DNA of 24,000 bases from an uncultured Clostridia bacterium (GTDB lineage Bacteria > Bacillota > Clostridia > Christensenellales > UBA1242): assembly GCA_930979925.1 (NCBI GenBank), contig CAKNIB010000003.1, positions 40,031 to 64,030 on the forward strand, in the 5' to 3' direction. The position numbers and the translations under genes were made by a program. Numbering within the stretch: position 1 is the stretch's first letter; every line of letters starts with the position of its first letter. The notes beneath the pieces were generated by a model. The model saw only the letters and a list, made by a program, of their open reading frames with translations. It was not told the DNA's origin and searched no databases. Shown in pieces: positions 3,101 through 24,000 of this stretch.

Positions 3101-3178
3101 TTATTGATTAACTCCTTTTTTATTATATCACATTCAAAGATAATTTGGAATACTTTTTCAAAAATTTTATATTTTATG

Positions 3179-3207
3179 CTGACTTTTTTGAGGTATAGCG
3201 GTATAAT
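3179..3207 (+). promoter_or_regulatory. Putative sigma-70-type promoter of the recombinase gene
   Basis: CTGACT (3179-3184), 17-nt spacer, TATAAT (3202-3207). If real, the TTG at 3207 used by the ORF track cannot be the start codon. Confidence 0.45.
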
Positions 3208-3227
3208 TGGTTAAAAGGTGGTGGAAT

Positions 3228-4829
3228 GTGAAAAAAGCAGTAATCTATGCAAGATATTCAAGTGATAGTCAGTCAGAGCAAAGTATTGATGGACAACTTA
3301 GAGTTTGCAAAGAATATGCAGAGCGAGAAAATATCAAGATTGTGGATACCTATATCGACAGGGCTATGACAGGCACAAATGACCATCGTCCAGACTTTCA
3401 AAGAATGCTGCGTGACAGCAAGAAGAAAGGTTTTGATTATGTGCTTGTGTATAAGTTTGATAGATTTGCTCGTTCTCGCCATGATAGTGCTGTGAATAAG
3501 GCGATTTTAAATCGCAATGGTGTTAAGGTTATTTCTGCCACTGAACAAATTTCGGACACACCAGAAGGCATAATACTTGAAGGAATGCTTGAAAGTTTTG
3601 CCGAGTATTATTCTGCCGAGTTATCACAAAAAGTCAAGCGTGGGCGAAAAGAAAGCAGAATAAAGGGTTTGTATGTAGGCGGTCGAGTTCCGTTTGGATA
3701 CATGGTGGAAGATAAAATTGTTAAAATCAACGAAAAGCAAGCAGATATTGTTAGACAAGTTTACAATGACTATATCTCAGGTATGGGATTGAAAGATATT
3801 GCAACCAAACTTAAAAAGCAGGGAATAAAGACAAACAACGGCAATGACTGGACAATAAATCAAATATCAAGAATGCTACGAAGTCCGTATTATTGCGGAA
3901 AGGTTTATGCTGACAACACGGTTTATACAAATATCTACCCACCAATTATTAACGAAGAATTGTTTGACAGGGTTAACAAGAGTTTGCAAACAGGTAAACG
4001 CACAGCGGCACAAAAGAAAGCGCCAATTCCTTTTATTTTGTCAGGCAAACTTGTTTGTGGAAAATGCAAAGCAAATATGACTGGTGACAGCGGAACAGGA
4101 AGAAATGGCATTCACTATTATTACAAATGCGTGAATAGAAAAAGAAAACACACTTGCGATAAGAAGAGTGTTGAGAAAGACTATATTGAAAACTATGTTG
4201 TTTGTGCTGTGAAAGAGTTTTTAAAGCACAATAGACAACTGAAAGAATTATCACAAGCAGTTGCGAATATATTTAACGAATATATCGGCAAAGATGTGGT
4301 GTTAAACTCTCTTAATGCACAAATGAAAGAGATAGATAGACAACTTAATAATTTAGCAAATGCAGTGGCGAATGGAATATTCTCAAAAACAACAAATCAA
4401 AAACTTAACGAACTTGAACAAGAAAAAGAAGATTTAGAAATTAAAATTGCAAGACAAAAAGCAAAGACAATCACTCCACTTAATGCCGACAAAGTTTACA
4501 ATTGGTTTTTATCATTTCAAAACATTGACACAACCGACAAACTTGCTTGTAAAAGAATGATTGATATGTTCGTGAACAAAATTGTTTTGTATGACGATTA
4601 TTTTGACATATACTTCAACACTTCGGATGATGAAAGCAAAAATATTAAACTGGACAATCAAGAAGATTTTGAAGAAATAGAAAAAGAGCAACCCAGCGGT
4701 TCGGATTACTCTCACTTGGTGCGGGAGATGGGAGTCGAACCCACATGGTATTGCTACCACAAGCACCTGAAACTTGCGCGTCTGCCATTTCGCCACTCCC
4801 GCTTAATTTTTAAACAAATTATAATTTAA
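3228..4829 (+). CDS. Large serine recombinase (integrase)
   Basis: N-terminal resolvase catalytic domain (AVIYARYSSDSQ...DRFARS), a recombinase domain, a zinc ribbon (CGKCKANMTG...YYYKCVNRKRKHTC) and a coiled-coil region. I prefer GVG-type start GTG at 3228 (RBS aaggtggtgg at 3214-3224) over the track's TTG at 3207. The last 34 codons (4725-4826) are read antisense through the tRNA-Leu gene. Confidence 0.9.
   Translation: MKKAVIYARYSSDSQSEQSIDGQLRVCKEYAERENIKIVDTYIDRAMTGTNDHRPDFQRMLRDSKKKGFDYVLVYKFDRFARSRHDSAVNKAILNRNGVKVISATEQISDTPEGIILEGMLESFAEYYSAELSQKVKRGRKESRIKGLYVGGRVPFGYMVEDKIVKINEKQADIVRQVYNDYISGMGLKDIATKLKKQGIKTNNGNDWTINQISRMLRSPYYCGKVYADNTVYTNIYPPIINEELFDRVNKSLQTGKRTAAQKKAPIPFILSGKLVCGKCKANMTGDSGTGRNGIHYYYKCVNRKRKHTCDKKSVEKDYIENYVVCAVKEFLKHNRQLKELSQAVANIFNEYIGKDVVLNSLNAQMKEIDRQLNNLANAVANGIFSKTTNQKLNELEQEKEDLEIKIARQKAKTITPLNADKVYNWFLSFQNIDTTDKLACKRMIDMFVNKIVLYDDYFDIYFNTSDDESKNIKLDNQEDFEEIEKEQPSGSDYSHLVREMGVEPTWYCYHKHLKLARLPFRHSRLIFKQIII
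4717..4802 (-). tRNA. tRNA-Leu(CAG): tRNA-Leu (anticodon CAG), class II with a long variable arm and encoded CCA
   Basis: Minus strand reads GCGGGAGTGGCGAAATGGCAGACGCGCAAGTTTCAGGTGCTTGTGGTAGCAATACCATGTGGGTTCGACTCCCATCTCCCGCACCA. Hand fold: 7-bp acceptor stem, anticodon stem CAAGT/GCTTG with loop TTCAGGT, variable arm TGGTAGCAATACCA, and T-loop TTCGACT. Confidence 0.9.
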
Positions 4830-4900: not shown

Positions 4901-4968
4901 AGCCCAAACTGCCACTACCACCCTAAAAATCTAACGATTTTCAGGGAACCCGGTTCCGCCACTCCCGC
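4898..4968 (-). pseudogene. Scrambled tRNA-Leu-derived fragment upstream of the intact tRNA
   Basis: The minus strand starts with GCGGGAGTGGCG, identical to tRNA-Leu positions 1-12. It then contains the 26-nt hairpin shared with 649-674, TGGTAG (as in the tRNA variable arm) and GGGCTCCCAT (T-stem 3' side). It does not fold into a cloverleaf and has no TPsiC loop. Confidence 0.5.
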
Positions 4969-9036: not shown

Positions 9037-9777
9037 ATGAAAAGATATCTATCATTTATTTTGGCTTTTGCACTAATGCTTACATTGTTTGCAGGGCTTA
9101 GCATGACGGTAAAACCTCGTGTAATTGACTCTGTCGCGTCAGCTGAAACTGTAGAATATGCAGACGAGAACGATACAAAAGAGAAGTCTGACATGGAGAT
9201 ATGCGTTATAGGTAGTGCTAAAAAATCGGTTACTCCAGATTACGCCAAGGTCACTGCGGTGATTGAGACTTTAGACATGGACATGAAAAAATCCAAAGAT
9301 TGTAACTTTGAGTGTTTTGAAAAAGTTCTCTCAGCGCTCAAAGAGGGAGGAATAACAGAAGATAAAATCGTGCTTGATGGCTTTACTTCTTATCCTAGCT
9401 ATGATTATGCGCAGGGCAAAACACTTACAGGTTACTACTCAATTACTACCTTTACCTTTGAAGTAGAAAACTTAGAGGACATTAAACAGTTTGTAGATAT
9501 AGCTGTTGAAAATGGTACAACAAGCATATGCAATATTGGGTATGAGCTGTCCAGTCTTGACCAGGTATATCAAGATGTTCTTTTACAGGCTATAGAGAAC
9601 GCCAAACTCAAGGCTCAAAAGATAACAGGCAATGATAATATTACGGTAAAAAGCGTAAAAGAGGAATATGTTTACTCCTGCTCATCACTTTATAGAACCT
9701 ATTCTGACGTGCTAGATGGCACAAACTTGATTGGCTCTATTGAAGTAGAAGCTCGCGTAAATGTAGAGTTTGAATAG
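9037..9777 (+). CDS. SIMPL (DUF541) domain secreted protein
   Basis: Strong RBS AGGAGG and a signal peptide MKRYLSFILAFALMLTLFAGL. The core I-V-GSAKKSVTPDYAKVTAVIE...ELSSLDQVYQDVLLQAIENAKLKAQKI...EVEARVNVEFE fits the SIMPL domain pattern. Confidence 0.7.
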   Translation: MKRYLSFILAFALMLTLFAGLSMTVKPRVIDSVASAETVEYADENDTKEKSDMEICVIGSAKKSVTPDYAKVTAVIETLDMDMKKSKDCNFECFEKVLSALKEGGITEDKIVLDGFTSYPSYDYAQGKTLTGYYSITTFTFEVENLEDIKQFVDIAVENGTTSICNIGYELSSLDQVYQDVLLQAIENAKLKAQKITGNDNITVKSVKEEYVYSCSSLYRTYSDVLDGTNLIGSIEVEARVNVEFE

Positions 9778-9818
9778 AAAAAAGTATGATTTAAATAGAA
9801 AAAGTATGTTTAAATAGA

Positions 9819-9866
9819 AAAAACCATCTTTTTTAGCAAAATTATGCTACTAAAGATGGTTTTTTA
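9819..9866. terminator. Bidirectional intrinsic terminator between the SIMPL gene and the convergent membrane-protein gene
   Basis: aaaccatctttt..tagca-aaatta-tgcta..aaagatggttt forms a long two-tier stem. It is flanked by an A-run and a T-run. Confidence 0.6.
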
Positions 9867-9897
9867 GGTACGCAAGAATAACACGAAAGGAATGAGT
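9865..9897. repeat. Hairpin-motif repeat, copy A (degenerate 3' arm)
   Basis: taggtacgcaagaataacacgaaaggaatgagt. Matches copy B at 32 of 33 positions and sits 40 nt upstream of it. Confidence 0.7.
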
Positions 9898-9904
9898 TTT
9901 TCTT

Positions 9905-9946
9905 TAGGCACGCAAGAATAACACGAAAGGAATGAGTGTTATTCTT
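9905..9946. repeat. Hairpin-motif repeat, copy B (left boundary of the ncRNA-bearing segment)
   Basis: taggcacgc-AAGAATAACAC-gaaaggaatga-GTGTTATTCTT. The stem is a perfect 11 bp (9914-9924 / 9936-9946). It overlaps the stop codon of the 9945-10745 gene by 2 nt. Confidence 0.7.
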
Positions 9947-10745
9947 ATTTATCCTTATTTTCACTGCCGCTGTCATCTATTTCAGAATTAAGACTTTCAA
10001 CTTGGACATTATCATTATGCTGTGCTATGTTTTTTGCAGTGCTGTCTATATCTTCAGCTTTTGTAGTGCTGCCTATATCTTCTGCTTTTACATCGTTTTC
10101 AGATATTTGTTCTTCGCCTGTCTTTACATCTGCATTGTCGCTAGCCTTATTTTTTGTATTTTTCTTTTGACCCTTGTTCTTTTTAGATATATGAAAAATA
10201 CTTAGTATTTTACCTATTATCAATATAATTTGGTCGGCGTGCACCATGGAGTATCTTTTCATAAAGGCTTTGCCGGAGATAAGCAGGGCAGCAATAACGG
10301 CAGAGACTAGCGAAGCTACGACTATCTGCATAAAGCCGGTCATGCTTTCACGAATAAGAGCAGTTGCAACGGCGGCACCGGCAGCACCACTCAAGATACT
10401 GCAGATATCACCTAGAATATCTGCCACTATACTTGACACTCTGTCTGCTCTCTTTTGAAGCCAGATAGCCTCTTTTGCTCCGCGAACCTTTCTTGACGCC
10501 ATAGCTCTAAAGTTTTTCTCGTCACAGGATGTGATTGCAACACCAATCATATCGGTAAGTATTGCAATCACAAGAAAAACTACAATAACGACAATAGAAA
10601 TCGCAATGCCGGCTCCGTCAAGTGCCACCTCGCTAAGCACACCAAACGCCATGGATAAACTAAAAGAAAGTACAAGCACGATAAGTGGCCAGCGAAAATA
10701 TTTGTTAAATTTAGATTGTTTTTTGCCTTTTTTGGGGTTATCCAT
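9945..10745 (-). CDS. Membrane protein resembling a stand-alone CNNM/DUF21 transmembrane domain, with an acidic repetitive tail
   Basis: Has TM helices. The segment AITSCDEKNFRAMASRKVRGAKEAIWLQKRADRVSSIVADILGDICSILSGAAGA parallels the DUF21 pattern (E-x-A...R...G...A...L....L.t.lig....n). The tail contains the repeat KAEDIGSTT/KAEDIDSTA. Confidence 0.4.
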   Translation of the reverse strand: MDNPKKGKKQSKFNKYFRWPLIVLVLSFSLSMAFGVLSEVALDGAGIAISIVVIVVFLVIAILTDMIGVAITSCDEKNFRAMASRKVRGAKEAIWLQKRADRVSSIVADILGDICSILSGAAGAAVATALIRESMTGFMQIVVASLVSAVIAALLISGKAFMKRYSMVHADQIILIIGKILSIFHISKKNKGQKKNTKNKASDNADVKTGEEQISENDVKAEDIGSTTKAEDIDSTAKNIAQHNDNVQVESLNSEIDDSGSENKDK

Positions 10746-10924
10746 TTTTCTCCTTATAAATAATTAAATAATTAATTAATATTTTACACGATTTTATTAA
10801 AAATTTCAATAAAAATTGTGTTTTTTGCGTTTTTTATTAAATTTATTGTATTATATTTATAAATTTTATTTATTTAATTATTTTTGCATAAAATTTTCTT
10901 AATTATTAAAAATAAAATAAATTG

Positions 10925-10952
10925 CAAAAAAAATAGAGCCAAAAGGCTCTAT
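10925..10952 (-). terminator. Intrinsic terminator of the large ncRNA
   Basis: Minus strand reads ATAGAGCC-TTTT-GGCTCTAT followed by a run of 8 T. There is no T-run on the + strand side, so it is unidirectional. Confidence 0.75.
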
Positions 10953-11512
10953 GAAGATAGCAGAATTAGTAAACCTTGTGTCATAGGTTCGGTCGGATTT
11001 CCCGGACTTGAAGCACTCAATGTCGCCATATGAGCAGTTTCCTTTTAAGCCAAGCGTTTCACCGAATCGCCACTCAGAACACACTATAATCCTATTTCTG
11101 CCTGCGCGAAAAACGCAACAGTCTAGAAGTTTTCCTTGGCAATCGCAAGTATTATTCTCTTTTTTTGCAGATATAGTTTCATAGGCAGATATACGCAAAG
11201 TTGGCCAGTTAAAACGTATATGTTAACACCTAATCCCAGTATATCCACTCAAAGTAGGCTACACTGCACACGGCTTTTACCGCAATGCAGGTTCTTATCC
11301 CAGAGAGTGCAACTTGTGCACCCTGATGGGTCTCCGCGAAAATTGGGACGCCGGACCGTATGCCGTTACAGCCTGCCCAATAATCTTAACTTCCAGCACC
11401 AGCCCCAGTTTGGGCAACCAAAGCCAGCACCAGAAACTTCATCGATGTGCCTTTCGACGCCATTTACTTCGTCTTCCTAATAGTACGATTGACTAGAATA
11501 CTGCATCTTCGT
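10926..11512 (-). ncRNA. Large (~590 nt) structured non-coding RNA, class unassigned (ROOL/GOLLD/OLE-like size class; identity not established)
   Basis: GC jumps from 7/60 in 10801-10860 to 32/60 in 11341-11400. There is no credible ORF. The locus is delimited by a consensus promoter and an intrinsic terminator on the minus strand. Hand-drawn helices, given in + coordinates: 11299-11330 (AGGGTGCA-CAAGT-TGCACTCT extended by CCCA/TGGG); 11264-11290 (CTGCA...TGCAG enclosing GCGG-TAAAAG-CCGT); 11342-11381 (ATTGGG...CCCAAT); 10992-11007 (GTCCGG-GAAA-TCCGAC, a GNRA loop); 11103-11117. The decamer CUGGUGCUGG occurs twice (11393-11402 and 11424-11433). Confidence 0.7.
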
Positions 11513-11517
11513 TATAT

Positions 11518-11546
11518 ATTATATCATAATCATAAAAATATTGCAA
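11518..11546 (-). promoter_or_regulatory. Consensus promoter of the large ncRNA
   Basis: Minus strand reads TTGCAA (11546-11541), 17-nt spacer, TATAAT (11523-11518). Confidence 0.65.
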
Positions 11547-11633
11547 GTGGCTTTAATTTTTACGACTTTTGTTAAAGAAAACGTCAACTAAATATCTAAA
11601 TAAAAGTCTTTCTTTTTTAATTTTCCTTTCTAA

Positions 11634-12017
11634 TTATGGTATGATTATGAAGGCACTCAATACCTTGACACCAGCGTTAACATCAATTTTGACAACCTTG
11701 ATATTGCAGATATTGAGAGGATAACGATTGAGCTTTATCAAGATGACCAACTTCTTGGTAATGCAGTTTCAGAAGGGGACAATTTAGTAACACTTTTTAA
11801 AGATTGTGCCCAGTACTGGGAGGCGACAGCAGCCACCTATCTTGAAGTTAAAGGCGATAGAATAATAAGCTGTGCATTTACCACAAGAGATGAAGAGAAT
11901 GACAATGGTTTTTGGGTGCGCTCTGAGTGCTCAGCAACTCCAGCAAGCGTTCCAAATAAACTTGAAGTAAAAGTTCTAGCAGGTAGCACAGAATATCTTG
12001 CCGAATACGAGGCATAA
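11634..12017 (+). pseudogene. Start-less 127-codon open frame: probable 5'-truncated gene remnant
   Basis: The frame is open from just after TAA at 11631-11633 to TAA at 12015-12017. It has no ATG, GTG or TTG until near its end, which is why the ORF track omits it. The translation looks protein-like (...NLVTLFKDCAQYWEATAATYLEVKGDRIISCAFTTRDEENDNGFWVRSECSATPASVPNKLEVKVLAGSTEYLAEYEA) and a strong terminator follows. Confidence 0.35.
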
Positions 12018-12032
12018 AAATCAGTTTCAGCC

Positions 12033-12068
12033 AAAAAACAGCCATTTTTGTTAAAATGGCTGTTTTTC
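12033..12068. terminator. Bidirectional intrinsic terminator
   Basis: AACAGCCATTTT-tgtt-AAAATGGCTGTT is a perfect 12-bp stem flanked by an A-run and a T-run. It serves the + strand remnant and the convergent HAD gene. Confidence 0.75.
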
Positions 12069-12077
12069 TATAATTAA

Positions 12078-12659
12078 CTAATTTTTTTGTATCTCATAAA
12101 AATATCTATAGATATCTCCCCAGTTGTTTACCTCGCGAATATATTCCGTCTCCTCAAGCTTTTTCAAATTAGCATCTCTAAAATATAGTGTTTTTATCTT
12201 TGCGTCGCTTATTTGCTGTATTATTTTATAATCATCATCAATCATAATATCAATTTTTTCTTTTTGACAAATCTCTAACTTATTATGTATACACCAATAA
12301 TATTTATCAAACGTTACATTGTGTTCTTGCAATATTTTAATAGCACTATCTTTCATCTCTGACACGAGCCCACCTCTGGCAGTTATAACAACAAGTTTGT
12401 GTCCCAAATCTTTTAGACGCTGATATACAGGTAAAAATCCAGCCATCAAACCTGTTTCATTAGAAGCTCTTAAAAGATATTTTTTATTAAATCTATCTTG
12501 CTCTTCACTTGTCCAATTGTACCTTGTTTGATATTTAGGCTCTTCATAATTAATGATTTTTCTCTGTTCTAAATCTTCTATAGCAAAAATTTCTTCATAA
12601 ACTCTAAACGCCACTTCGCTATCAAAGACAACTCCGTCCAAATCAATCCCTATTTTCAC
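12078..12659 (-). CDS. HAD-superfamily hydrolase, 5'(3')-deoxyribonucleotidase-like
   Basis: GTG start with RBS GGAG. Has HAD motif I IDLDGVV, VVITARGG and IMIDDD. Size and motif layout resemble the NT5C-type nucleotidases. Confidence 0.55.
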   Translation of the reverse strand: MKIGIDLDGVVFDSEVAFRVYEEIFAIEDLEQRKIINYEEPKYQTRYNWTSEEQDRFNKKYLLRASNETGLMAGFLPVYQRLKDLGHKLVVITARGGLVSEMKDSAIKILQEHNVTFDKYYWCIHNKLEICQKEKIDIMIDDDYKIIQQISDAKIKTLYFRDANLKKLEETEYIREVNNWGDIYRYFYEIQKN

Positions 12660-12742
12660 GCTTTACTCCTATATGTTTATCAAAATTTAGTATACATATT
12701 CTAAATTATTCTATTTGACAAGTCAATAAAAAACACAAAAAG

Positions 12743-12783
12743 AAGAAAACACTCATTTCATTCGTGTTGTTCTTGCGTGCCTA
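12743..12783. repeat. Hairpin-motif repeat, copy C (inverted relative to copies A and B; right boundary of the segment)
   Basis: AAGAAAACAC-tcatttcattc-GTGTTGTTCTT-gcgtgccta. Its reverse complement matches copy B at about 88% over 41 nt by eye. Confidence 0.65.
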
Positions 12784-12811
12784 AAAAAATGCAGATAAGG
12801 TTACCTGCATC
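12782..12811 (-). terminator. Intrinsic terminator of tRNA-Asn
   Basis: Minus strand reads ATGCAG-10 nt loop-CTGCAT followed by T7. It lies 9 nt past the tRNA 3' end. Confidence 0.6.
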
Positions 12812-12819
12812 TTTTATTT

Positions 12820-12894
12820 TGGCTCCCCAGGTAGGATTCGAACCTACGGCCTATCGGTTAACAGCCGAGCGCTCCACCACTGAGCTACTGGGGA
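12820..12894 (-). tRNA. tRNA-Asn(GTT): tRNA-Asn (anticodon GTT), CCA encoded
   Basis: Minus strand reads TCCCCAGTAGCTCAGTGGTGGAGCGCTCGGCTGTTAACCGATAGGCCGTAGGTTCGAATCCTACCTGGGGAGCCA. Hand fold gives a cloverleaf with anticodon loop CTGTTAA and T-loop TTCGAAT. Confidence 0.9.
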
Positions 12895-12993
12895 ATAAGT
12901 TGTTCCTAATTAGCTATATGCTTTTTACTCTCATAAAGTTAATCATTGAGGGAAATATGAGGCAAACATCCTTTTCAGGATGATTGCTCTTAT

Positions 12994-13022
12994 ATAATAT
13001 CAAATAGTTTTTCTTTTGTCAA
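12994..13022 (-). promoter_or_regulatory. Consensus promoter upstream of tRNA-Asn
   Basis: Minus strand reads TTGACA (13022-13017), 17-nt spacer, TATTAT (12999-12994). This predicts a leader of roughly 90 nt. Confidence 0.55.
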
Positions 13023-13130
13023 CGATTTTTTGAAGATTTTTTAAGTTTTTTGATAAAATTTTTACTATAAACTTGTAGACAAGTATTATCACAGGAAATA
13101 TTTTTCTAAAATGTTTTAAGCTAGTGAAAA

Positions 13131-14048
13131 TTACTTATCATCTCTTAACCCTTTAAATACTGGCTGGCGCATAGCACCGTCCTTGGTGAGCATCATATAT
13201 TGCACAGTGCAGACAAGTTCGGGCTTTATCCAAATTATATCACCTGAAATATCTCCGAAAAATGCCTTTTTACTTTGATTTTTAAGGGCAAATGCGGTGA
13301 TTATCTCTTGCTCTTCTTTTGAAATATGCAAAAACACCTTGCCTCGATAGACAAGCTTTTTCTTTTTTTCCTGTCCTAAGATTAAATCTTTGATGTTGTT
13401 ATCTTCGTCAAGCGCAAAACCACAGATAAGAAAGTCCTCATCAATAAGATTTTTGACTTTTATCCAATTTTTACTGCGATTGCCAATTTCGTAACGGGAA
13501 TTTTTCTCTTTTGCAACAATACCTTCAAGTCCTCGGTCTTTAGTTAGAGAAAAAAGTTTTATTCCTTGCCCGACAATATAGCGGGATATTGCCAGAAGGT
13601 CATTTTCTACTATGTTTTTTGCTAAGAACTCCTTTCGCTTAAGAAGTGGCAAGTCTGTTAAATCATCTTTTCCAAGTTGTAAAATGTCGTATGCCACAAA
13701 GTGGACTTTATTTTTGCTTGCTTCGAGCTCTATCCTTAAAGGGTCGGTCATAAGACTTCGCTTTTGAAGAGCAAAAAAGTTTGGCGAGCCATCATTATTT
13801 AGCACCACAAGCTCGCCGTCTAGTACGCAAGGCTTTTTTGCCTGCTTAAATATGCTTTTTAACTCTGGATAGATGTCAATCAGCTCTTTGTTTCTCTTGT
13901 TTCTAATATAGACGGCATCTTTTTCAAGATAAGCAATGGCACGAATTCCGTCAAGTTTTAGCTCAAATATATAGTTTTCATCGTCAAAGGGCTCTTTTTC
14001 CTCTTCAAGTAGCATGGGAGAGATGTTTTTATCTACAAAAAAGTCCAT
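13131..14048 (-). CDS. ligD: ATP-dependent DNA ligase, LigD ligase-domain-only type (NHEJ)
   Basis: Motif I ELKLDGIRA (KxDG), plus FVAYDIL, EGIVAK and WIKVK. Its ATG directly follows the ku stop codon. Confidence 0.85.
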   Translation of the reverse strand: MDFFVDKNISPMLLEEEKEPFDDENYIFELKLDGIRAIAYLEKDAVYIRNKRNKELIDIYPELKSIFKQAKKPCVLDGELVVLNNDGSPNFFALQKRSLMTDPLRIELEASKNKVHFVAYDILQLGKDDLTDLPLLKRKEFLAKNIVENDLLAISRYIVGQGIKLFSLTKDRGLEGIVAKEKNSRYEIGNRSKNWIKVKNLIDEDFLICGFALDEDNNIKDLILGQEKKKKLVYRGKVFLHISKEEQEIITAFALKNQSKKAFFGDISGDIIWIKPELVCTVQYMMLTKDGAMRQPVFKGLRDDK

Positions 14049-14858
14049 TTACGCCTTCTTTTTTATCTTGACCACTTTGCTGTCTTTTTTAAGCTCTTCA
14101 ATATTTTTGACACTTTGTGTGAGCGCGTCCATAAGGTCGGTAATATTTACCGTTTTTTCGCTGTCAACCATTTTTATCTCCTTGCCTTTTGCTTTGTCTT
14201 TTATTGCTTGTTTTACGCGAGCGATGTATTCATCTTTGTAGTCACTGGCAACAAAAGTCCCGCTCATAGCGTCAATCATGGTTTTTGCAAGGGCTTGCTC
14301 CTGCTGGGTGAGTTGAGCTTTAATCGTGCTTGCCGGATTAAGTTGCACCTCTTCATCAAAAAATAGCCTTGAAAGCATTAAGTCATCCTCTTTTACCCAA
14401 AGTGCCACCACACATTCGGATGCACCAAGCATAGTCTTTGCAATTCCTACCTTGTTTTCGCTTTTCAAAGTGGTAAGTAGAAGAAAATATGCTTTTTCCG
14501 CGCCCTTGCTTTCAGGTACTACATAATATGTCTTATCAAAGTAAATAGGATTTATTTCAGAAAGTGAGACAAATTTGTCAATGATAATATTTTTATCTCG
14601 CTTGGTTTTAAGTTTTTCAAGCTCGCCTTCTTCAAAGATAACATAGTTATCCTCACTTATTTTATAGCCTTTTACAATGTCCTCATTTTTAACAACTTTG
14701 TCGCCACATTCTTCACAGGTCTTTTTGTACTGCACACGCGACTTTGTCTTTTTGTCAAGCATGTTAAAGCCGATGTCGTTGTTCTTTATGGTATTGTGTA
14801 AGGTAACCGGAATATATACCAGCCCAAAGCCGATAGATGTTTTGTAGCTATATGCCAT
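14049..14858 (-). CDS. ku: Ku DNA end-binding protein (NHEJ)
   Basis: ATG 14858 with RBS AAGGAGG is preferred over the track start at 14888. MAYSYKTSIGFGLVYIPVTLHNT...VQYKKTCEECG...IVKGY is a typical bacterial Ku N-terminus, and the C-terminal tail is basic. Confidence 0.85.
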   Translation of the reverse strand: MAYSYKTSIGFGLVYIPVTLHNTIKNNDIGFNMLDKKTKSRVQYKKTCEECGDKVVKNEDIVKGYKISEDNYVIFEEGELEKLKTKRDKNIIIDKFVSLSEINPIYFDKTYYVVPESKGAEKAYFLLLTTLKSENKVGIAKTMLGASECVVALWVKEDDLMLSRLFFDEEVQLNPASTIKAQLTQQEQALAKTMIDAMSGTFVASDYKDEYIARVKQAIKDKAKGKEIKMVDSEKTVNITDLMDALTQSVKNIEELKKDSKVVKIKKKA

Positions 14859-14921
14859 TTTGCCTCCTTGCCTTTTAGTATGGCGCAATAGAAGTGATTT
14901 TATAATACAATGAAAATATTA

Positions 14922-17276: not shown

Positions 17277-17306
17277 TTGCTTCTTTGACTAAAAACGTGG
17301 TATTAT
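17277..17306 (+). promoter_or_regulatory. Putative extended -10 promoter of the giant lipoprotein gene
   Basis: TTGCTT (17277-17282), 18-nt spacer, TGgTATTAT (17298-17306). Confidence 0.45.
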
Positions 17307-17327
17307 GAAAATACTAAGGATGGGAAA

Positions 17328-20300
17328 ATGAAAAAAGGTTTATTTGGGACTATCGCGCTTTTGTTTATTGCCTGCATAACTCTCTCTGCCTGCAATAGCA
17401 AGCCAAGCGTTAGTGGAAATTTTAAAAAAGACAGCTATGTTGTGTCGATAAATGATACAATAAATTTTTATGATGAGCTAACCTCACTAGAAGGTGCAAG
17501 CATAGGTGAGGTAGAGATTGAGGTGTCAAACAGCGAGGTGTTGCAAGAGCGGGACAACACTTTTGTTGCTGTCAGCTTTGGCAATACCATGGTCTTTGCA
17601 AAATACAATGATAAAACCTTTGCCCAAACAGAAGTGACGGTCAAAAACAAATTTTCCACTCCTACAAATCTTCAGGTGGACGAAGACGGCGCTCTTTCCT
17701 GGGATAACTCCTTTGCATACTTTGATGAAAGCCTAAATACTGCCGATGATTATATTTTAGAATACGCAAATATTACCGGACTTGAAGAAATCGCAATAGA
17801 TGAGCTTGAAATAAGAAGAGAAGAGATTAGTGCAACTGCTGGTTTTTCGTTTGAAGAGGCAGGCTCATACTACGCAAGACTGACAGCAAATGGGAACGAC
17901 AATATTGATAGCTCTGACCCTTCTGAGTGGAAGATTTTAAACTATAACGCCATGGGACTTTTAGAGGATGTGTCTTTGATAGTTTCTGAAGAGATGGCAA
18001 ACGACAGCGCAACTCTTACCTGGTTTGAAAAAGAAAACGCCTCATACGACGTTTATATAGACGGCTTTAAGGTGGCAGAAAACCTTTTAACAAATAGTTT
18101 TACCTATGATTACAGCCTAGTCCAAGAAGGACAAAGTATAGAGATAAAAGTTACCGCTAGTGATAGCGAGTCCGACCGCATAGCTTCAACCACTAGACTT
18201 GAGGTTGAAAAACTGTTAACTCCTGAGCTTTTTTATAACAGAAGCACAACCAGCAACCCTTCAGGATATTTATACATTGAAGACAATCAAAATGCATCAG
18301 GTTTTGGACTTTATTTGGTTAAGCAATCAAGCGGACGATCTTTTTACTACAATGTATCAAATGAAGAGAATGATAGAATATTTTTTGAAGAACTTGAAAG
18401 CGGTTTATACAGCCTAAACCTTAAAGCGCTTGGAGGTAGCAACCTTAGTGGTCATTTCCTAAACAGTGCTTTAGCTAGCACCGTACGCATTGCAAAACTT
18501 GCAACGCCTACAATAGATGTACAGTTTGAAGGCGAAAATGCCATTTTAACATTTAGCGGAGATAGTTATAACAATAGGTACTTGATAACTTATGCGGATG
18601 AGACCTTGATTGCAACAGGCTCTAGTTGCCAGATAGACCTCTCTGACCTCCAGCCAGGAAATTATACTTTTGCGGTTCAAGCTCTGCCAAGTCTTTCAGG
18701 TACTGATATAATACCATACATTGAAGGTGGTTTAAACAGTGAGTACATTTTAAACTCAAATTCTGCTACTTTTGACTTTACAATACTTGAAGATATTGGC
18801 TATGTAACGCATGATTTATCTCTTGACCAGTCGCAGTCCACCTTTACCTTTGCAGAGGTGCCAGGCGCAAACTATTATGAGCTTTACATAAACGGCACTT
18901 TAAATCAAACGGTTGACGCAGAGGAAGCGGTTTTAAACGGCACAGTTAGCATAACTGTCAACAACTTAAAGGATATTGAGCCACAAGAAAATAATTACGT
19001 TATAGATATCGTCGCTGGAATAAGAGTTGAAGAACAAGAACGGGCGGTTAAATCAACTTATCAAAAGACGCTTTCTATTCTTCCAGCAGTCACGGCAGGA
19101 AGCGAGCAGACAAATGGCTATTACAGCTGGAACAAAGTTGAAGGTGAGGCGTACTACACCTATCAAATCTTTAAAACGGGCAGTGATTATTCGTTAGACG
19201 GCGCCGAGCTGATTGCTGAAGGCGGAACAAGCGAAGATACCATCAATGATAGACTTGACTTTGGCTACTATGTAATTAGAGTTTATACAACATCAATAAA
19301 CGAGGATAGATATTTAGACTCTACCTTCCATGACAGCGCAAATTATTTTGAAGCAAACTTTTTAGTTTACCAGCAGATAGACGCGCCTACCATAACCTTT
19401 GCGACCGAAGATGGTAGCTATGTATTATATATGTCAAAGGTAGAATATGGCGGAGGCTATACTATTGAGTTGTACTTGGACGGCTCGCTTGAAAGTACCA
19501 ACAGCATTTATTTCAATAGTGACCAAGAAAGAGCGAGATACGTCTTTGCAGAGGACAGTTTTGATAGCACCAACACCTATACAGTACAGGTGAGTGCAAA
19601 CAGAGGTCAGCTTGACGACAGCGCTTTGCATACTCCATCAGAAAAGAGCGAGCTTACTGTTACAAGACTAGCCCAGCCAACCTTTACCGTGCAAGAGGTG
19701 GTATCAAACGGACAAAAATCAGCAGAGAACCTTGCGGTTACTTTGGTAGACCACGCGTCACATGTTGTAATCGAGTTTGAAGAAAGTGTGGTAAATTACG
19801 ACTCTGAAAACGAGAGATATCAAAACAGCATCAACCTATTTAATCAACCGGGATATGATGAGGACTTTGTCTTGACCTTCACCTATGCAAGCGGGCAGGC
19901 AGAGGGCAATAACTACTTTATAGACAGCCATCCTTACGATGTAAACTTTAAACGGGCAGAAATGCCAAGCCAGATGGCATATCAAGATGGTAACTTGACA
20001 TTTACATGTAACGATGAAAATGTAGAAGGCTATTACCTTACAATCATATTAGTAAATAGTGACAACGGCAACTCATATTTTAGAGAATATGTGACAAGCA
20101 GTGGCACTATCGACCTACAAAGCATAATTGACAGGCTCTATAGTCAGGACCCTGTATTTAGTAGCAACTATGACCAAGCCGAGTCTATACAAATCGAGCT
20201 TTACTCATACAAAAATGGCTTTACCGGCGATGTATATTATCTTCCATCAGACAATGGCACAACACTGTCAGGACAGCCAATAAACATACAAAGACTTTCG

Positions 20301-23300
20301 CCATCAACTCTTACCTTTGATAAGGATAGCCTGACAATCAGTTGGAACCAAGTGGCACCAAACACCACATATGACATATATGTTGATGGTAGAGAAGCAA
20401 TCTCAGACTACAACAATCTAGGGCAGGATAACCGCGTTAGCATTAGCCTTTCAGACTTAGGCTATGACTTCCTCACACAAAGAAGAATTTATGTAGTAAG
20501 CAAAAATGCCTCATTCCTCGACTCGGCAAACTCAAATACCATATATATTAAAGAGCTTGCCTCAGTATCCTCAATAAATGTTGCAAATTCTGACGAGGAC
20601 ATTGTAGTAAGCTTTAGCCTAGCTCAAGACTATGCAAGCGCACAAGGAGTGCAAGTCAATGGTAGTGACATAGAAATCAGCACCAATAGAGGCAGTTTCT
20701 TACTTTCAGCCTTCCCAGACACCCAAAACTTTACCTTTAAAGTTATAGCTGGAGAGAGCAGTTCTAACTACTATTATTACAACTCACAAGAGACTACCTT
20801 CCAGCTTATAAACCTTTCTACTCAAGATTTAACTGTTTCAATTGCAAACAATGTTATCACTTGGGATAGTGTAGCCTCTGACTTTATAGGAGCAAGTCAA
20901 AATCCTTTAAGTTACCGCTTGCAAATTGCTTGTGGAGAGCAAAACTATACAATATCTACAACCCAAACTACTTTTGACCTTCAAGCTGTAGAAGAGACAA
21001 TAGGCGTAAAATTAAATGGTGATTTTGAAATCACAGTAGAGGCAATAATTGCCGACTATAACCTTACTTTATTAGGCGGACAGGCAAGAGGCTACTATGG
21101 TAGCAGGACCAGCCAGCCAGCGTCGAGTAAAAAACTTTCGGCTGTTGGACAGATAGACACTCTAGTTGTTGATGCTACTGACATGGGTAGCACTTTAGAG
21201 AATAAACTTAACGCCTCTGTTACTCTCTCATGGCAGGACGATTGGAGCAACCTAAGCCTTCCAAATGCCGTTTACTTTGAAGTGACAATAGCAGGGCAGA
21301 CAAACCCAATTGTTGTTACAAATGGCACCCAAGCCCAAGACTACAGCCTCAGCCTAGTAGATGGACAATACAATCTGTCACTTTCTGGAAGATATTTCAC
21401 GCAAAGCGAAACAGCCATATCAGTTAGAGTAGTTAGCGAGAATATGATAACATCAGAAGAGACAACGACTGCTGTCAACAGAATTACCAGCACCTACTCA
21501 ATCTCGCTTGACCAGGAAGGCATTTTGACAATAAATGATAGCGCAAATAATTCTTACCTTCTTCAACTTACTATAGGTAGCCTTGTTGTAGAACAGGCTT
21601 ACCTCTATGAGGAAGGTCAAGACAATAAGACCATCGACCTAATGCAAGAGGGCATGCTAAAAGGTGCTTATGGTAGCTATACTATATATGTTCTTGCATT
21701 TGATAGCTCATACGCTTCTCTACCTTCACTTGCCCCAGCCGAGAATATGGGTAGCAAGTTGCAGGGACTTAGCAGTGTTCTTCTTAGAGAAGACGGCAAT
21801 ATACATATGGAGCTATACAGTGACGACTTCGAAGGTCTTACCTTCAGCGTAAGAACGCTTGCAGGTGGTGACTATGTCTACAGAAGTTTCCTTCCAGATG
21901 GTACAACTTCAACATATTTTACACTTCATATCTTTGTCATCGTGGATAGTTTTGCTGACGCTGTATCTTTTGAGGCAGGCAGAAGCTACACCTTTGAGGT
22001 GGCAATCAATAAAAATGGTCAGGTAAACTCTGACTATCTAAGCTTTAGCTTTAGTTGTAGTGCAGATACCACTCCAACTCAATATAGAGGACTTGACCTC
22101 ACAAAAGACTATATCATATTTGATGTACCAGAAAATGACGACACAGTGTCGTTACTAGCAAGGGTATACACACTGCAAGGCAGTAGCTACACCTTTGACC
22201 AAAGCCTATACTTCCTAAGTGAAGATATTCGCGGATATTGGTGTCAGGATAGCGAAACTGGCGACAGCTACTTCTCAACAACAATTGACCCATCAAATGC
22301 TAATGTCACATATACCGAGTGCTACGCGCTCAGCCTTAACGACCTACTAGCCGAGTACGAATACGGCGCGTTCTATATAGACTTTGCTCGTTTTGGACAA
22401 AGTGATGGCGAGTACAAGCTATATTATAGATATAACTATAACCCATTAAAACTTAATACTGTTAACGAAGATATAGAACAGGGCACAGATACTATAGTAA
22501 GAGTTAATGGTAACAGCCTTGTATGGCAATGGCGCGCTCCAAGTGACCTTGCCCAGTTAAGCCAGTTTAGAGCAACAAGCTATTATGTAATAATAAGGTC
22601 GCTGACAGACGAAAACGAGTCATATAAGTTTAGAACAGATACCTCTAGCTTTGACCTTAGCGAAGCAAACCTCACAGCAGGGCAGACTTATCAAATTTAT
22701 GTAGTCGCAGCCTCCACAACGCGAGGAGTGGTAGCATCAAACGAGACCACAAATCCAGTTTTTGCACTGCAGTATAGCCAGCCACTTCCATTAGATGTAG
22801 TAGATGGACGATTAATGTTTAACGAAGAGTCCTTTGCCGATTCTGACTTTATGACAACCATAACCTCATACTTTGGTCAGACCTCTCATGCTCAGCCACT
22901 GTATGATATCATGGGCAATGGAACTTATCTTTCACCATACTACTTTACAACAGCAAATATTGCCGAGACCATGCTAACCATCCGCTTTACTTTGCAGGAT
23001 GAGTCAGGTGCAGATACCAACACCTATTATGAGGTAACGCTTGCAGGCTATGAGCTTCTTCCAGATATAACCATTACCAATGTAAATGGAGATATCAGTG
23101 GACAGCAAAGCGCTTCATACTTTGACCTACTTGAGGCATATGTAGAGACCATACAAGATGTCAACACCGAAAACGCCGTAAGATTTAAAGCGATGGTAGA
23201 GACACTGCAGGACTCTAACCGCGGTCTAGCAGGTGGCGGGGTACTCCTTGATGATATAGCAAGAAGGGTGCCAGCCGGCAAATACTCATTGTCGATAATT

Positions 23301-24000
23301 CATAAAGCAAACAACGGACAAAACATTGACTCCAAAGCTTCGGTAGCAATAGATGTCTATGTGACCGCAGCCCCAAGCGTTGAGCTCAATATTGAGCAGG
23401 GCGAAAACAGTGAAAACTATTACACGGCAACCTTTGGTAGTGCTAAAACTTATGTTCCTCAAAATGCAGGTAGCGACGGCAGAGGTGAAGATTACTCATA
23501 TCAAACGGTTACTCAGTATACAATGACCCTTCGATATGACTACTCAGTGACAAACAACGTAATATCTCATAGTGGATATGTGGAATTTGACATTGTCTAC
23601 CTTTCAAGCGGATGGCAACTTAGATTTGCAGGCTTCCCGCTTTCAGGTGGCGTTATAACAGATGTTCCAGGCGGTGATGTTCCAGGTTTTAAAATAAATG
23701 TGACAGCACTAAAACAGATGGTTGACTCAGTTGCCGGCATGTTTGGTCAAACAATTCCAACAAATAGAGATATCAGGGTGGACGTATACGCTCGCTCGGG
23801 CGACACTGGTTATGTACTCAACGGTAAGAGCGCTTACTTCAACCTCAGGTTCCTAGAGCTTCCAACCGACAGCATAGCTTTTGAGAATGGTCAAATGACA
23901 GTAACAACCACTCTTGACAGCACAAATGCTATTCTTATGAGATATCTAGTTTCTGGCAGTGAAGTTGCAACTCAGACCTTCCCACTGACCAACGGAATTG
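17328..24000 (+). CDS. Giant surface lipoprotein built from many degenerate Fn3/Ig-like beta-sandwich modules (3'-partial, more than 2,224 codons in the window)
   Basis: Absent from the ORF track because no stop lies inside the window. I read the frame codon by codon from ATG 17328 (RBS AAGGA) to 24000 and found no stop. The N-terminus MKKGLFGTIALLFIACITLSAC has a lipobox (LSAC). Module signatures recur, for example ATLTWFEKENASYDVYIDG, FAEVPGANYYELYINGT, YYSWNKVEGEAYYTYQIF, LTISWNQVAPNTTYDIYVDG and LVWQWRAPSDL...YYVIIRS. Confidence 0.85.
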   Translation, partial: MKKGLFGTIALLFIACITLSACNSKPSVSGNFKKDSYVVSINDTINFYDELTSLEGASIGEVEIEVSNSEVLQERDNTFVAVSFGNTMVFAKYNDKTFAQTEVTVKNKFSTPTNLQVDEDGALSWDNSFAYFDESLNTADDYILEYANITGLEEIAIDELEIRREEISATAGFSFEEAGSYYARLTANGNDNIDSSDPSEWKILNYNAMGLLEDVSLIVSEEMANDSATLTWFEKENASYDVYIDGFKVAENLLTNSFTYDYSLVQEGQSIEIKVTASDSESDRIASTTRLEVEKLLTPELFYNRSTTSNPSGYLYIEDNQNASGFGLYLVKQSSGRSFYYNVSNEENDRIFFEELESGLYSLNLKALGGSNLSGHFLNSALASTVRIAKLATPTIDVQFEGENAILTFSGDSYNNRYLITYADETLIATGSSCQIDLSDLQPGNYTFAVQALPSLSGTDIIPYIEGGLNSEYILNSNSATFDFTILEDIGYVTHDLSLDQSQSTFTFAEVPGANYYELYINGTLNQTVDAEEAVLNGTVSITVNNLKDIEPQENNYVIDIVAGIRVEEQERAVKSTYQKTLSILPAVTAGSEQTNGYYSWNKVEGEAYYTYQIFKTGSDYSLDGAELIAEGGTSEDTINDRLDFGYYVIRVYTTSINEDRYLDSTFHDSANYFEANFLVYQQIDAPTITFATEDGSYVLYMSKVEYGGGYTIELYLDGSLESTNSIYFNSDQERARYVFAEDSFDSTNTYTVQVSANRGQLDDSALHTPSEKSELTVTRLAQPTFTVQEVVSNGQKSAENLAVTLVDHASHVVIEFEESVVNYDSENERYQNSINLFNQPGYDEDFVLTFTYASGQAEGNNYFIDSHPYDVNFKRAEMPSQMAYQDGNLTFTCNDENVEGYYLTIILVNSDNGNSYFREYVTSSGTIDLQSIIDRLYSQDPVFSSNYDQAESIQIELYSYKNGFTGDVYYLPSDNGTTLSGQPINIQRLSPSTLTFDKDSLTISWNQVAPNTTYDIYVDGREAISDYNNLGQDNRVSISLSDLGYDFLTQRRIYVVSKNASFLDSANSNTIYIKELASVSSINVANSDEDIVVSFSLAQDYASAQGVQVNGSDIEISTNRGSFLLSAFPDTQNFTFKVIAGESSSNYYYYNSQETTFQLINLSTQDLTVSIANNVITWDSVASDFIGASQNPLSYRLQIACGEQNYTISTTQTTFDLQAVEETIGVKLNGDFEITVEAIIADYNLTLLGGQARGYYGSRTSQPASSKKLSAVGQIDTLVVDATDMGSTLENKLNASVTLSWQDDWSNLSLPNAVYFEVTIAGQTNPIVVTNGTQAQDYSLSLVDGQYNLSLSGRYFTQSETAISVRVVSENMITSEETTTAVNRITSTYSISLDQEGILTINDSANNSYLLQLTIGSLVVEQAYLYEEGQDNKTIDLMQEGMLKGAYGSYTIYVLAFDSSYASLPSLAPAENMGSKLQGLSSVLLREDGNIHMELYSDDFEGLTFSVRTLAGGDYVYRSFLPDGTTSTYFTLHIFVIVDSFADAVSFEAGRSYTFEVAINKNGQVNSDYLSFSFSCSADTTPTQYRGLDLTKDYIIFDVPENDDTVSLLARVYTLQGSSYTFDQSLYFLSEDIRGYWCQDSETGDSYFSTTIDPSNANVTYTECYALSLNDLLAEYEYGAFYIDFARFGQSDGEYKLYYRYNYNPLKLNTVNEDIEQGTDTIVRVNGNSLVWQWRAPSDLAQLSQFRATSYYVIIRSLTDENESYKFRTDTSSFDLSEANLTAGQTYQIYVVAASTTRGVVASNETTNPVFALQYSQPLPLDVVDGRLMFNEESFADSDFMTTITSYFGQTSHAQPLYDIMGNGTYLSPYYFTTANIAETMLTIRFTLQDESGADTNTYYEVTLAGYELLPDITITNVNGDISGQQSASYFDLLEAYVETIQDVNTENAVRFKAMVETLQDSNRGLAGGGVLLDDIARRVPAGKYSLSIIHKANNGQNIDSKASVAIDVYVTAAPSVELNIEQGENSENYYTATFGSAKTYVPQNAGSDGRGEDYSYQTVTQYTMTLRYDYSVTNNVISHSGYVEFDIVYLSSGWQLRFAGFPLSGGVITDVPGGDVPGFKINVTALKQMVDSVAGMFGQTIPTNRDIRVDVYARSGDTGYVLNGKSAYFNLRFLELPTDSIAFENGQMTVTTTLDSTNAILMRYLVSGSEVATQTFPLTNGI

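Follow-up and report, generated by a model that had tools for sequence, protein, structure and literature searches.

What does a GC-rich island encode when it lies in AT-rich DNA and is crossed only by overlapping open reading frames (ORFs)? The question is posed by positions 10925-11546 of a 24,000-nucleotide (nt) stretch of DNA (the window) from an uncultured Clostridia bacterium (Christensenellales, UBA1242; GenBank assembly GCA_930979925.1, contig CAKNIB010000003.1, positions 40,031 to 64,030). An earlier inspection of the letters alone (the sequence-only reading) had proposed a structured minus-strand RNA of about 587 nt, either one of the large ornate RNAs, with ROOL as the best fit and OLE as an alternative, or the member of a new class. 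We conclude that the locus is almost certainly an ole gene, specifying OLE RNA, followed by oapA, the gene for the membrane-protein partner of that RNA.

An OLE RNA gene in a GC-rich island

When all of the window was compared with Rfam 15, OLE RNA (RF01071) was matched at 11525-10938 on the minus strand; the score was 362.8 bits, where the gathering score is 50, and E was 2e-103. The match spans positions 1-616 of the 616 in the model, so that it is not truncated, and it is the single large-RNA match in the window. OLE (ornate, large, extremophilic) RNA, which reportedly goes back to Puerta-Fernandez et al. of the Breaker laboratory in 2006, is among the largest bacterial RNAs without a known biochemical function. 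An Rfam search had been put forward as a check on the RNA call, and its confident result confirms the RNA, at about 585 nt, while removing the novelty: this is a known family in a reduced form that has already been published, and the RF01071 match excludes a new class.

The assignment to ROOL, to GOLLD or to a new large ornate class had drawn on the length (about 580 nt), the Bacillota host and the proximity of a tRNA gene, and no tool result speaks in its favor. Models for ROOL and GOLLD are both present in Rfam 15, yet neither produced anything at its gathering score in the whole window, and a permissive Rfam scan of 9700-13100 found no match at E<=10 for ROOL, GOLLD, RNase P, tmRNA or group I and group II introns, whereas OLE is matched over its full length. 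Moreover, oapA lies downstream of the RNA, and there is no phage or prophage context around the locus, leaving these classes with practically no chance of being right. The sequence-only reading was thus correct in calling a large ornate RNA and in setting aside RNase P, tmRNA, rRNA and introns, and it was mistaken in ranking ROOL ahead of OLE. A match to the L10 leader at 11983-12077 (27 bits against a threshold of 44, E = 0.13) was treated as chance.

OLE loci for comparison were collected by an exact pattern in two conserved motifs, with one genome kept per species, which yielded at least 120 loci, almost all from Bacillota. Among the matches listed, the OLE and OapA sequences closest to those of the window come from Clostridia metagenome-assembled genomes (MAGs), one of them Candidatus (Ca.) Onthoplasma, placed in Christensenellales in the NCBI taxonomy. 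When the structure of the OLE model was projected onto the window, 129 of its 144 pairs were canonical and 15 were not. To this projection we added the terminal stem P1 and a candidate P3, giving 159 pairs, and scored it on an alignment of the window with 64 OLE sequences (65 in total) that was not fitted to structure. Paired cells amounted to 85.0%, compared with 40-46% when partners were slid by 1-3 columns; double-sided changes occurred in 113 of the 159 pairs; and the covariation score of 0.443 exceeded those of slid (0.11-0.15) and shuffled (0.19) versions, with none of 500 shuffles reaching the observed value. Covariation among homologs, another check that had been proposed, therefore returned a strong signal. 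Blocks of near-invariant nucleotides, amounting to ~25% of positions, are a further mark of the family, and the window has every column that is invariant across the 65 sequences, including two blocks that the search pattern itself demanded; its conserved OLE blocks are GCAGUAUUCUAGUCA, GGCACAUCGAUGAAG, GUAGCCU, CUAGACUGU, GGAUUA..AGUGG and GGGAAAUCC. The window RNA thus adopts the covariation-supported OLE fold, from the P1 closure through P4-P9 and P10-P14.1.

Could the island instead be a decayed or frameshifted protein gene, a GC-rich remnant that merely looks structured? Three overlapping ORFs of 60-114 amino acids (aa) run across it (10899-11198, minus strand; 11136-11480 and 11314-11496, plus strand), and a metagenome gene caller annotated one of them, a 99-aa ORF inside the OLE RNA, at positions 3-296 of contig L122 (window 10899-11192, minus strand). 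A Pfam search of the three ORFs, which did not extend to a database-wide translated search, gave no match, as opposed to the E of 2e-103 for the covariance model, and substitutions between species are compensatory in helices and not codon-like. We hold a decayed gene to be extremely improbable; the ORFs are spurious, as the sequence-only reading had judged, and the L122 call exemplifies how gene callers misannotate OLE RNA by placing spurious ORFs on structured RNA genes.

The downstream gene encodes OapA

The sequence-only reading had overlooked the gene next downstream of ole, which is oapA, the hallmark OLE partner. It occupies 9945-10745 on the minus strand, follows a ribosome-binding site AAGGAG (10755-10750) and encodes a protein of 266 aa. 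Among the loci listed, 100 of the 102 with room for it have an OapA homolog in the same orientation as ole, at 580-1177 nt downstream of the OLE 5' anchor, including those of Bacillaceae such as Lederbergia. Against the 266-aa protein, the Pfam CNNM domain (DUF21; PF01595) scored 24.4 bits, below its cut-off of 28.4, with no CBS, CorC or other domain found, and a search of NCBIfam gave no match to an OapA model, only noise. The same weak, sub-threshold CNNM similarity is reported for OapA in the literature (PMC11332333).

In an alignment of 100 OLE-adjacent proteins, the window protein carries the invariant residues D65, G68, D109-x-x-G112-D113, S119-G120, G158-K159 and K163. The DxxxD motif, which distinguishes OapA from CNNM domains, is present in 99 of the 100 proteins and reads D109-I-L-G-D113 in the window, with D109, G112 and D113 conserved at 99-100%. 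There are four hydrophobic segments, predicted to be helices (20-38, 45-63, 113-131 and 138-156), and the loop between the second and third has nine K/R in residues 75-105, its cytoplasmic side being assumed from the literature. The best sequence matches in the PDB, although weak (E = 0.37-0.44), are to CorB (7M1U/7M1T). An AlphaFold model has a mean predicted local distance difference test score (pLDDT) of 62.5, with an all-helical core at 70-83 and a tail (192-266) below 50, and its top four Foldseek hits in the PDB are CorB 7M1T/7M1U and CorC 7CFG/7CFF (E = 0.02-1, probability 1.0-0.87); CorB 7M1U is also the best structural match for OapA given by Fernando & Breaker (PMC11332333). Synteny, motifs, topology and fold together establish that the 266-aa protein is OapA, with a CNNM-like fold.

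Transcription signals of ole

The composition of the locus is exactly as the sequence-only reading had counted (7 G/C in 10801-10860, 32 in 11341-11400), and GC content is 44.6% in the OLE match, 9.5% in the spacer at 10746-10924 and 35.8% in the window overall. The promoter and terminator that had been proposed are likewise present. A sigma-70-type promoter at 11518-11546 on the minus strand has a -35 element TTGCAA (11546-11541), a 17-nt spacer and an extended -10 element TGaTATAAT (11526-11518), and an intrinsic terminator at 10925-10952 consists of ATAGAGCC-TTTT-GGCTCTAT and a T-run in DNA, or AUAGAGCC-UUUU-GGCUCUAU and a U-run in RNA. Promoter-like hexamer pairs are not enriched in the AT-rich region (17 seen against 12.6 expected). 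A stronger argument than the consensus match alone is conservation in three gut Clostridia MAGs (L055, L098 and L102), whose ole RNA is ~81% identical: TTG of the -35 element and TGnTATAAT are kept while the sequence upstream diverges, and the terminator stem is invariant, with a loop of 4-8 nt, while the downstream flanks diverge.

The predicted start, near 11511-11510, coincides with the first base of P1, and the terminator directly follows its last base, which suggests a primary transcript of ~585 nt that would need little or no trimming. Judged by these signals, ole is a stand-alone unit, a ~585-nt RNA with its own promoter and intrinsic terminator, and not part of a long operon. A weak candidate for a separate oapA promoter, TTGAAA-17-TAAAAT at 10781-10809 (minus strand), is a consensus match in the very AT-rich spacer. 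The locus also validates a heuristic, namely that a structured RNA in an AT-rich genome is marked by a GC-rich island that has a promoter and a terminator of its own.

Helices and loops of the RNA

All elements of the RNA (10938-11525) lie on the minus strand. The whole molecule is closed by P1, in which GAAGAU (11505-11510) pairs with AUCUUC (10958-10953), directly before the terminator hairpin; 95% of its cells are paired across the 65 sequences and five of its six pairs are doubly changed, the window form being a compensated variant of the GGUGGU/ACCACC found in most species. Next comes a candidate P3/P3.1 of our own assignment, in which GCAGU-AUU-CUAG (11493-11504) would pair with CUAG-ACUGU in the conserved block CUAGACUGU (11126-11118). 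Its cells pair in 99-100% of cases and are near-invariant, so that covariation lends no support, and the search pattern itself accounts in part for the invariance of the 5' strand. A bilayer-spanning role has been suggested for P3 (PMC12265935).

The P4 hairpin, GACGA-AGUAAAUG-GCGUC (11456-11473), carries loop L4 at 11461-11468. In other OLE RNAs this loop is a near-invariant CCUAAAAAUCC; among the loci listed, AGUAAAUG or a similar loop occurs only in the window, L055, L098 and L102. The A-rich L4 forms the dimer bridge B1, an intermolecular A-A bridge in the cryo-electron microscopy (cryo-EM) structure (PMC12286853). An intermediate L4, UUAAAAUA, is seen in L103 and L040. The conserved block GGCACAUCGAUGAAG in the P4a / J4a-5 region (11437-11451), one of the motifs required by our search pattern, corresponds to the proposed OapA-binding region and to one strand of a k-turn (PMC12265935, PMC12286853).

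P5/P5.1 is a G.U-rich hairpin (11390-11436) with loop GCCCA, in which 20 of 20 pairs are canonical; 97% of its cells pair across the 65 sequences and 12 pairs have double changes. It also explains a decamer that had been seen to occur twice, CTGGTGCTGG (in RNA, CUGGUGCUGG), whose two exact copies at 11433-11424 and 11402-11393 (0.02 expected) are the two arms of this hairpin. In P6/P6.1 (11338-11385), with loop AACGGCAU, GGC in the loop forms the kissing interaction with GCC in the loop of P5.1 (PMC12265935). P7 (11299-11330) and P8 (11264-11290) are both shortened. The helices that had been drawn by hand correspond to this part of the fold: the stem at 11342-11381 is P6, and those at 11264-11330 are P7 and P8. 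The long arm P9 (11158-11255) ends in a palindromic loop UGGCCA (11207-11202), whose GGCC is invariant or near-invariant across the aligned OLE sequences and which forms the symmetric kissing loop of the dimer (PMC12286853). The dimerization loops are thus retained, both the P5.1 GCC / P6.1 GGC kissing pair and the palindromic GGCC of P9.

The 3' domain (10959-11117) comprises the covariation-tested helices P10 (11117-11103), P11 (11102-11092 with 10969-10959), P12 (11083-11079 with 10981-10977), P12.2 (11066-11061 with 10993-10988), P14 (11056-11049 with 11014-11004) and P14.1 (11035-11015), the last with a GCGA tetraloop, as well as the block GGGAAAUCCG (11003-10994). At 11057-11060, where P13 would be expected, GAAA alone stands between P12.2 and P14.

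A reduced form of OLE RNA

Segment lengths between conserved anchors, measured in 107 OLE sequences, show where the window copy is short. The P13 segment is 28 nt, compared with a median of 46 (10th percentile 45); the J6/7-to-P8 segment, at 42 nt, falls short of a median of 55, as does the P8 segment, at 29 nt, of one of 35, while the two parts of P9 are of normal length (57+37 nt against medians of 56+39). Other OLE RNAs have at P13 a hairpin of ~22 nt, with a bulge and a GNRA loop, where L055, L098 and L102 have ~5 nt. Because the P13 hairpin is the primary OapB-binding site (PMC7936274), its deletion removes the primary docking site for OapB and turns a four-way into a three-way junction; a weaker secondary OapB site, the GCGA loop of P14.1, is retained. 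The loss does not disqualify the RNA from OLE membership, since the published variant 1 RNAs also often lack the OapB site at P13 (PMC11332333). From the vantage of the 24-kb window, the reduced ole probably works without OapB.

Among 19 OLE RNAs scored with the Rfam model, the window obtained 362.8 bits, its three relatives 387-391 and the 15 others 434-554. Having the lowest score, a lost P13, short P7 and P8, a diverged L4 and 15 of 144 non-canonical model pairs, the window copy might be suspected to be a non-functional relic degenerating in a reduced genome, and rare defective ole genes are on record (PMC11332333). However, the reduced architecture, promoter and terminator are common to four species at ~81% identity, and the maintenance of this form in all four implies selection. 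The accompanying oapA is intact and has all invariant residues, whereas published defective copies occur where oapA is missing; the P5.1, P6.1 and P9 dimerization loops and the conserved blocks are kept; and variant 1 is itself a widespread class (PMC11332333). We therefore regard a relic as very unlikely and continue to read the window copy as a maintained, reduced OLE RNA.

The OapA proteins of this group are longer than usual: after K163 the tail has 103 residues in the window, 84 in L055 and 91 in L098, compared with a median of 39 and a 90th percentile of 48, so that these three carry an extra ~50-60 residues. In the window the C-terminal ~75 aa (residues ~190-266; 9945-10170) are low-complexity, charged, rich in K/N/D/S/E and predicted to be disordered. 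We considered a general link between P13 loss and a long OapA tail and rejected it, as L024 and L096 are without most of P13 and have short tails.

Genomic neighborhood

Might ole and oapA travel together on a mobile or accessory cassette? The sequence-only reading had placed the RNA in a repeat-bounded accessory segment, and repeats do flank it (9860-9939 and 12748-12789): oapA, ole and a HAD-like ORF (12078-12659, minus strand) are enclosed by a 42-nt inverted repeat (9899-9940 / 12748-12789, 90% complementary), which has a tandem copy at 9860-9899. In addition, L055, L098 and L102 have ole-oapA and share none of the neighboring genes of the window. The mobile segment, however, did not hold up, as there is no transposase, integrase or other mobility gene between the repeats, and an intrinsic terminator hairpin directly adjoins each of the repeats. 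A further copy, 96% identical, is placed in the same way, just 5' of a terminator, in a metagenome contig that is otherwise unrelated (L124:400-448), which together with the terminator-adjacent copies in the window indicates a dispersed terminator-associated element and not a cassette boundary. Loss of synteny is expected at only ~81% ole identity between different named taxa. A cassette is accordingly very improbable.

The element itself is ~45 nt long and present in three copies in the window, two in tandem after the oapA stop (9860-9899 and 9900-9946, plus strand) and one inverted near tRNA-Asn (12743-12791, minus strand). It can form a hairpin, AAGAAUAACAC / GUGUUAUUCUU, whose CU-rich loop UCAUUCCUUUC is anti-Shine-Dalgarno-like on the strand that runs into the adjacent terminator. 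It has no match in Rfam, and may be a small RNA or a 3'-end element.

The tRNA gene near the RNA, which the sequence-only reading had rightly noticed, is tRNA-Asn (12820-12894), and each of the three relatives, like the window, has a tRNA gene at about 0.3-4 kb from ole (L055:3909-3980; L098:5638-5709 and 3113-3185; L102:6052-6123). A bacterial nonhomologous end-joining module, consisting of Ku (279 aa) and a LigD-like ATP-dependent DNA ligase (305 aa), is found ~1.6 kb upstream of ole (13131-14888, minus strand); DNA repair genes are among the published frequent neighbors of ole. Further genes in the window encode SIMPL, YgjV and a pseudouridine synthase.

Between the ole promoter and a bidirectional terminator at 12030-12062 lies a 126-codon open frame (WYDYEGTQYLDTSVNINF..., 11637-12017, plus strand) with no ATG, GTG or TTG start until codon 94. 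It had no Pfam match, and neither the rest of the window nor the other loci contained anything similar apart from L121, which is a contig of the same organism; the frame could be a 5'-truncated gene remnant or have an unusual start codon. Toward one end of the window, tRNA-Leu(CAG) (4717-4802, minus strand) is overlapped by an ORF for a 540-aa large serine recombinase (3207-4829; Resolvase, Recombinase and Zn ribbon); partial copies of the 3' end of this tRNA occur at 609-642 and 957-990. Two further repeats are present, one of 125 nt in direct orientation (507-631 / 855-979, 99%) and one of 31 nt whose copies are exact (649-679 / 4921-4951). These copies and repeats, with the recombinase ORF, look like att-site duplications of a small integrated element. 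Toward the other end, an open frame of more than 2237 codons (17289-23999, plus strand) runs off the window and has a weak fibronectin type III match; its product is probably a giant surface protein.

Elsewhere in the comparison set, three OLE contigs (L047, L062 and L108) come from MAGs labeled Fibrobacter, Deltaproteobacteria and Succinivibrio, probably through binning contamination or gene transfer, an explanation that the literature also gives for 24 non-Bacillota OLE matches.

Proposed mechanism

Genetics and biochemistry in H. halodurans and cryo-EM of Clostridium OLE RNAs form the basis of a mechanism that can be applied, by analogy, to the window (PMC12265935, PMC12286853 and PMC11332333). 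OLE RNA would form a homodimer via the P5.1/P6.1 kissing loops, the P9 loop and L4, and OapA dimers (2:1) would bind the RNA near P4a and either tether it to the membrane or, possibly, thread it through. Loss of the OLE particle leads to sensitivity to Mg2+, cold, short-chain alcohols and poor carbon sources, and the particle would thus help against excess Mg2+ and these other stresses; OapA, a distant CNNM relative that anticorrelates with the Mg2+ exporter MpfA, probably has a CNNM/MpfA-like part in divalent-cation homeostasis. We infer that the window locus may make the same membrane ribonucleoprotein (RNP) for cation and stress homeostasis, without OapB docking at P13. This role is a best guess, as no species has yet yielded a biochemical activity for OLE RNA.

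A number of points weigh against the reading of the locus as a working OLE particle. The window copy has the lowest Rfam score of the 19 and a diverged L4 dimer-bridge loop, which together make some loss of function conceivable. The comparison set, an exact-pattern collection listed in part, is neither exhaustive nor unbiased; the ends of the ole transcript are predictions from sequence; and the OapA model is moderately confident, with weak E-values in the fold search. The mechanistic layer is borrowed from other species and partly speculative, the membrane-spanning P3 stem being itself a published hypothesis (PMC12265935).

A bolder and rather doubtful proposal is that the clade formed by the window and the three gut Clostridia MAGs carries a naturally minimized, self-contained OLE particle: a stand-alone unit with a three-way junction, no OapB hairpin, a redesigned L4 bridge and an OapA whose extra ~60-residue charged disordered tail might replace contacts that OapB or OapC would otherwise make. 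If true, it would offer a compact natural system for defining the minimal functional OLE RNP. Compact natural variants that are without the OapB site and have shortened P7/P8 are in any case mildly useful for defining the essential OLE core. In other respects the locus is one more OLE-oapA pair from an uncultured gut Clostridia lineage and opens no new question.

Comparison with known systems

ROOL and GOLLD resemble OLE in being large, ornate, non-coding RNAs of bacteria that assemble into homo-oligomers and whose function is unknown, but most are encoded by phages or prophages, neither has OapA as a partner, and the cages that they build comprise 8 and 14 subunits (PMC12286853). Within the OLE family, the window copy has the same helices, conserved blocks and dimerization loops as other members, with oapA directly downstream and relatives in the Bacillota. 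It differs in the absence of P13, the short P7 and P8, an L4 that is not CCUAAAAAUCC, a score of 363 bits compared with 434-554, and a length ~30 nt below that of typical copies. The ole gene of H. halodurans lies among isoprenoid and other housekeeping genes within a polycistronic operon (PMC12265935), whereas that of the window appears from its signals to stand alone.

The window OapA shares with OapA of H. halodurans (WP_010898928) and with CNNM, MpfA, CorB and CorC proteins the pattern of four predicted transmembrane helices, DxxxD, a basic loop and best structural matches to CorB/CorC. MpfA and CorB carry CBS / CorC_HlyC domains, which the window OapA does not, and at two sites the latter departs from the residue usual in OapA proteins, with N78 in place of P (92% of them) and L155 in place of T (95%).

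The closest published counterpart is variant 1 OLE RNA (Fernando & Breaker 2024; PMC11332333), found in gut Clostridia with reduced genomes. By that account, variant 1 RNAs have short P7-P9 and often no OapB site, their genomes are largely without oapB and oapC, and they constitute a recognized, widespread class. Three reservations attach to the comparison: P9 is shorter in variant 1 and of normal length in the window; the variant 1 score band of 310-390 bits derives from the authors' own model and the 362.8 bits of the window from that of Rfam; and the nearest named relative, Ca. Onthoplasma, is assigned to Christensenellales by NCBI, its affiliation with TANB77 not being established. The L4 divergence of the window clade is also unmentioned in the available part of the variant 1 paper. 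Nonetheless, in both cases P7 and P8 are short, the OapB site at P13 is lost and the host is an AT-rich, uncultured, gut-type bacterium; each also has an intermediate score under the model applied to it, and on this sequence profile the window copy looks like a reduced form that agrees with published variant 1.

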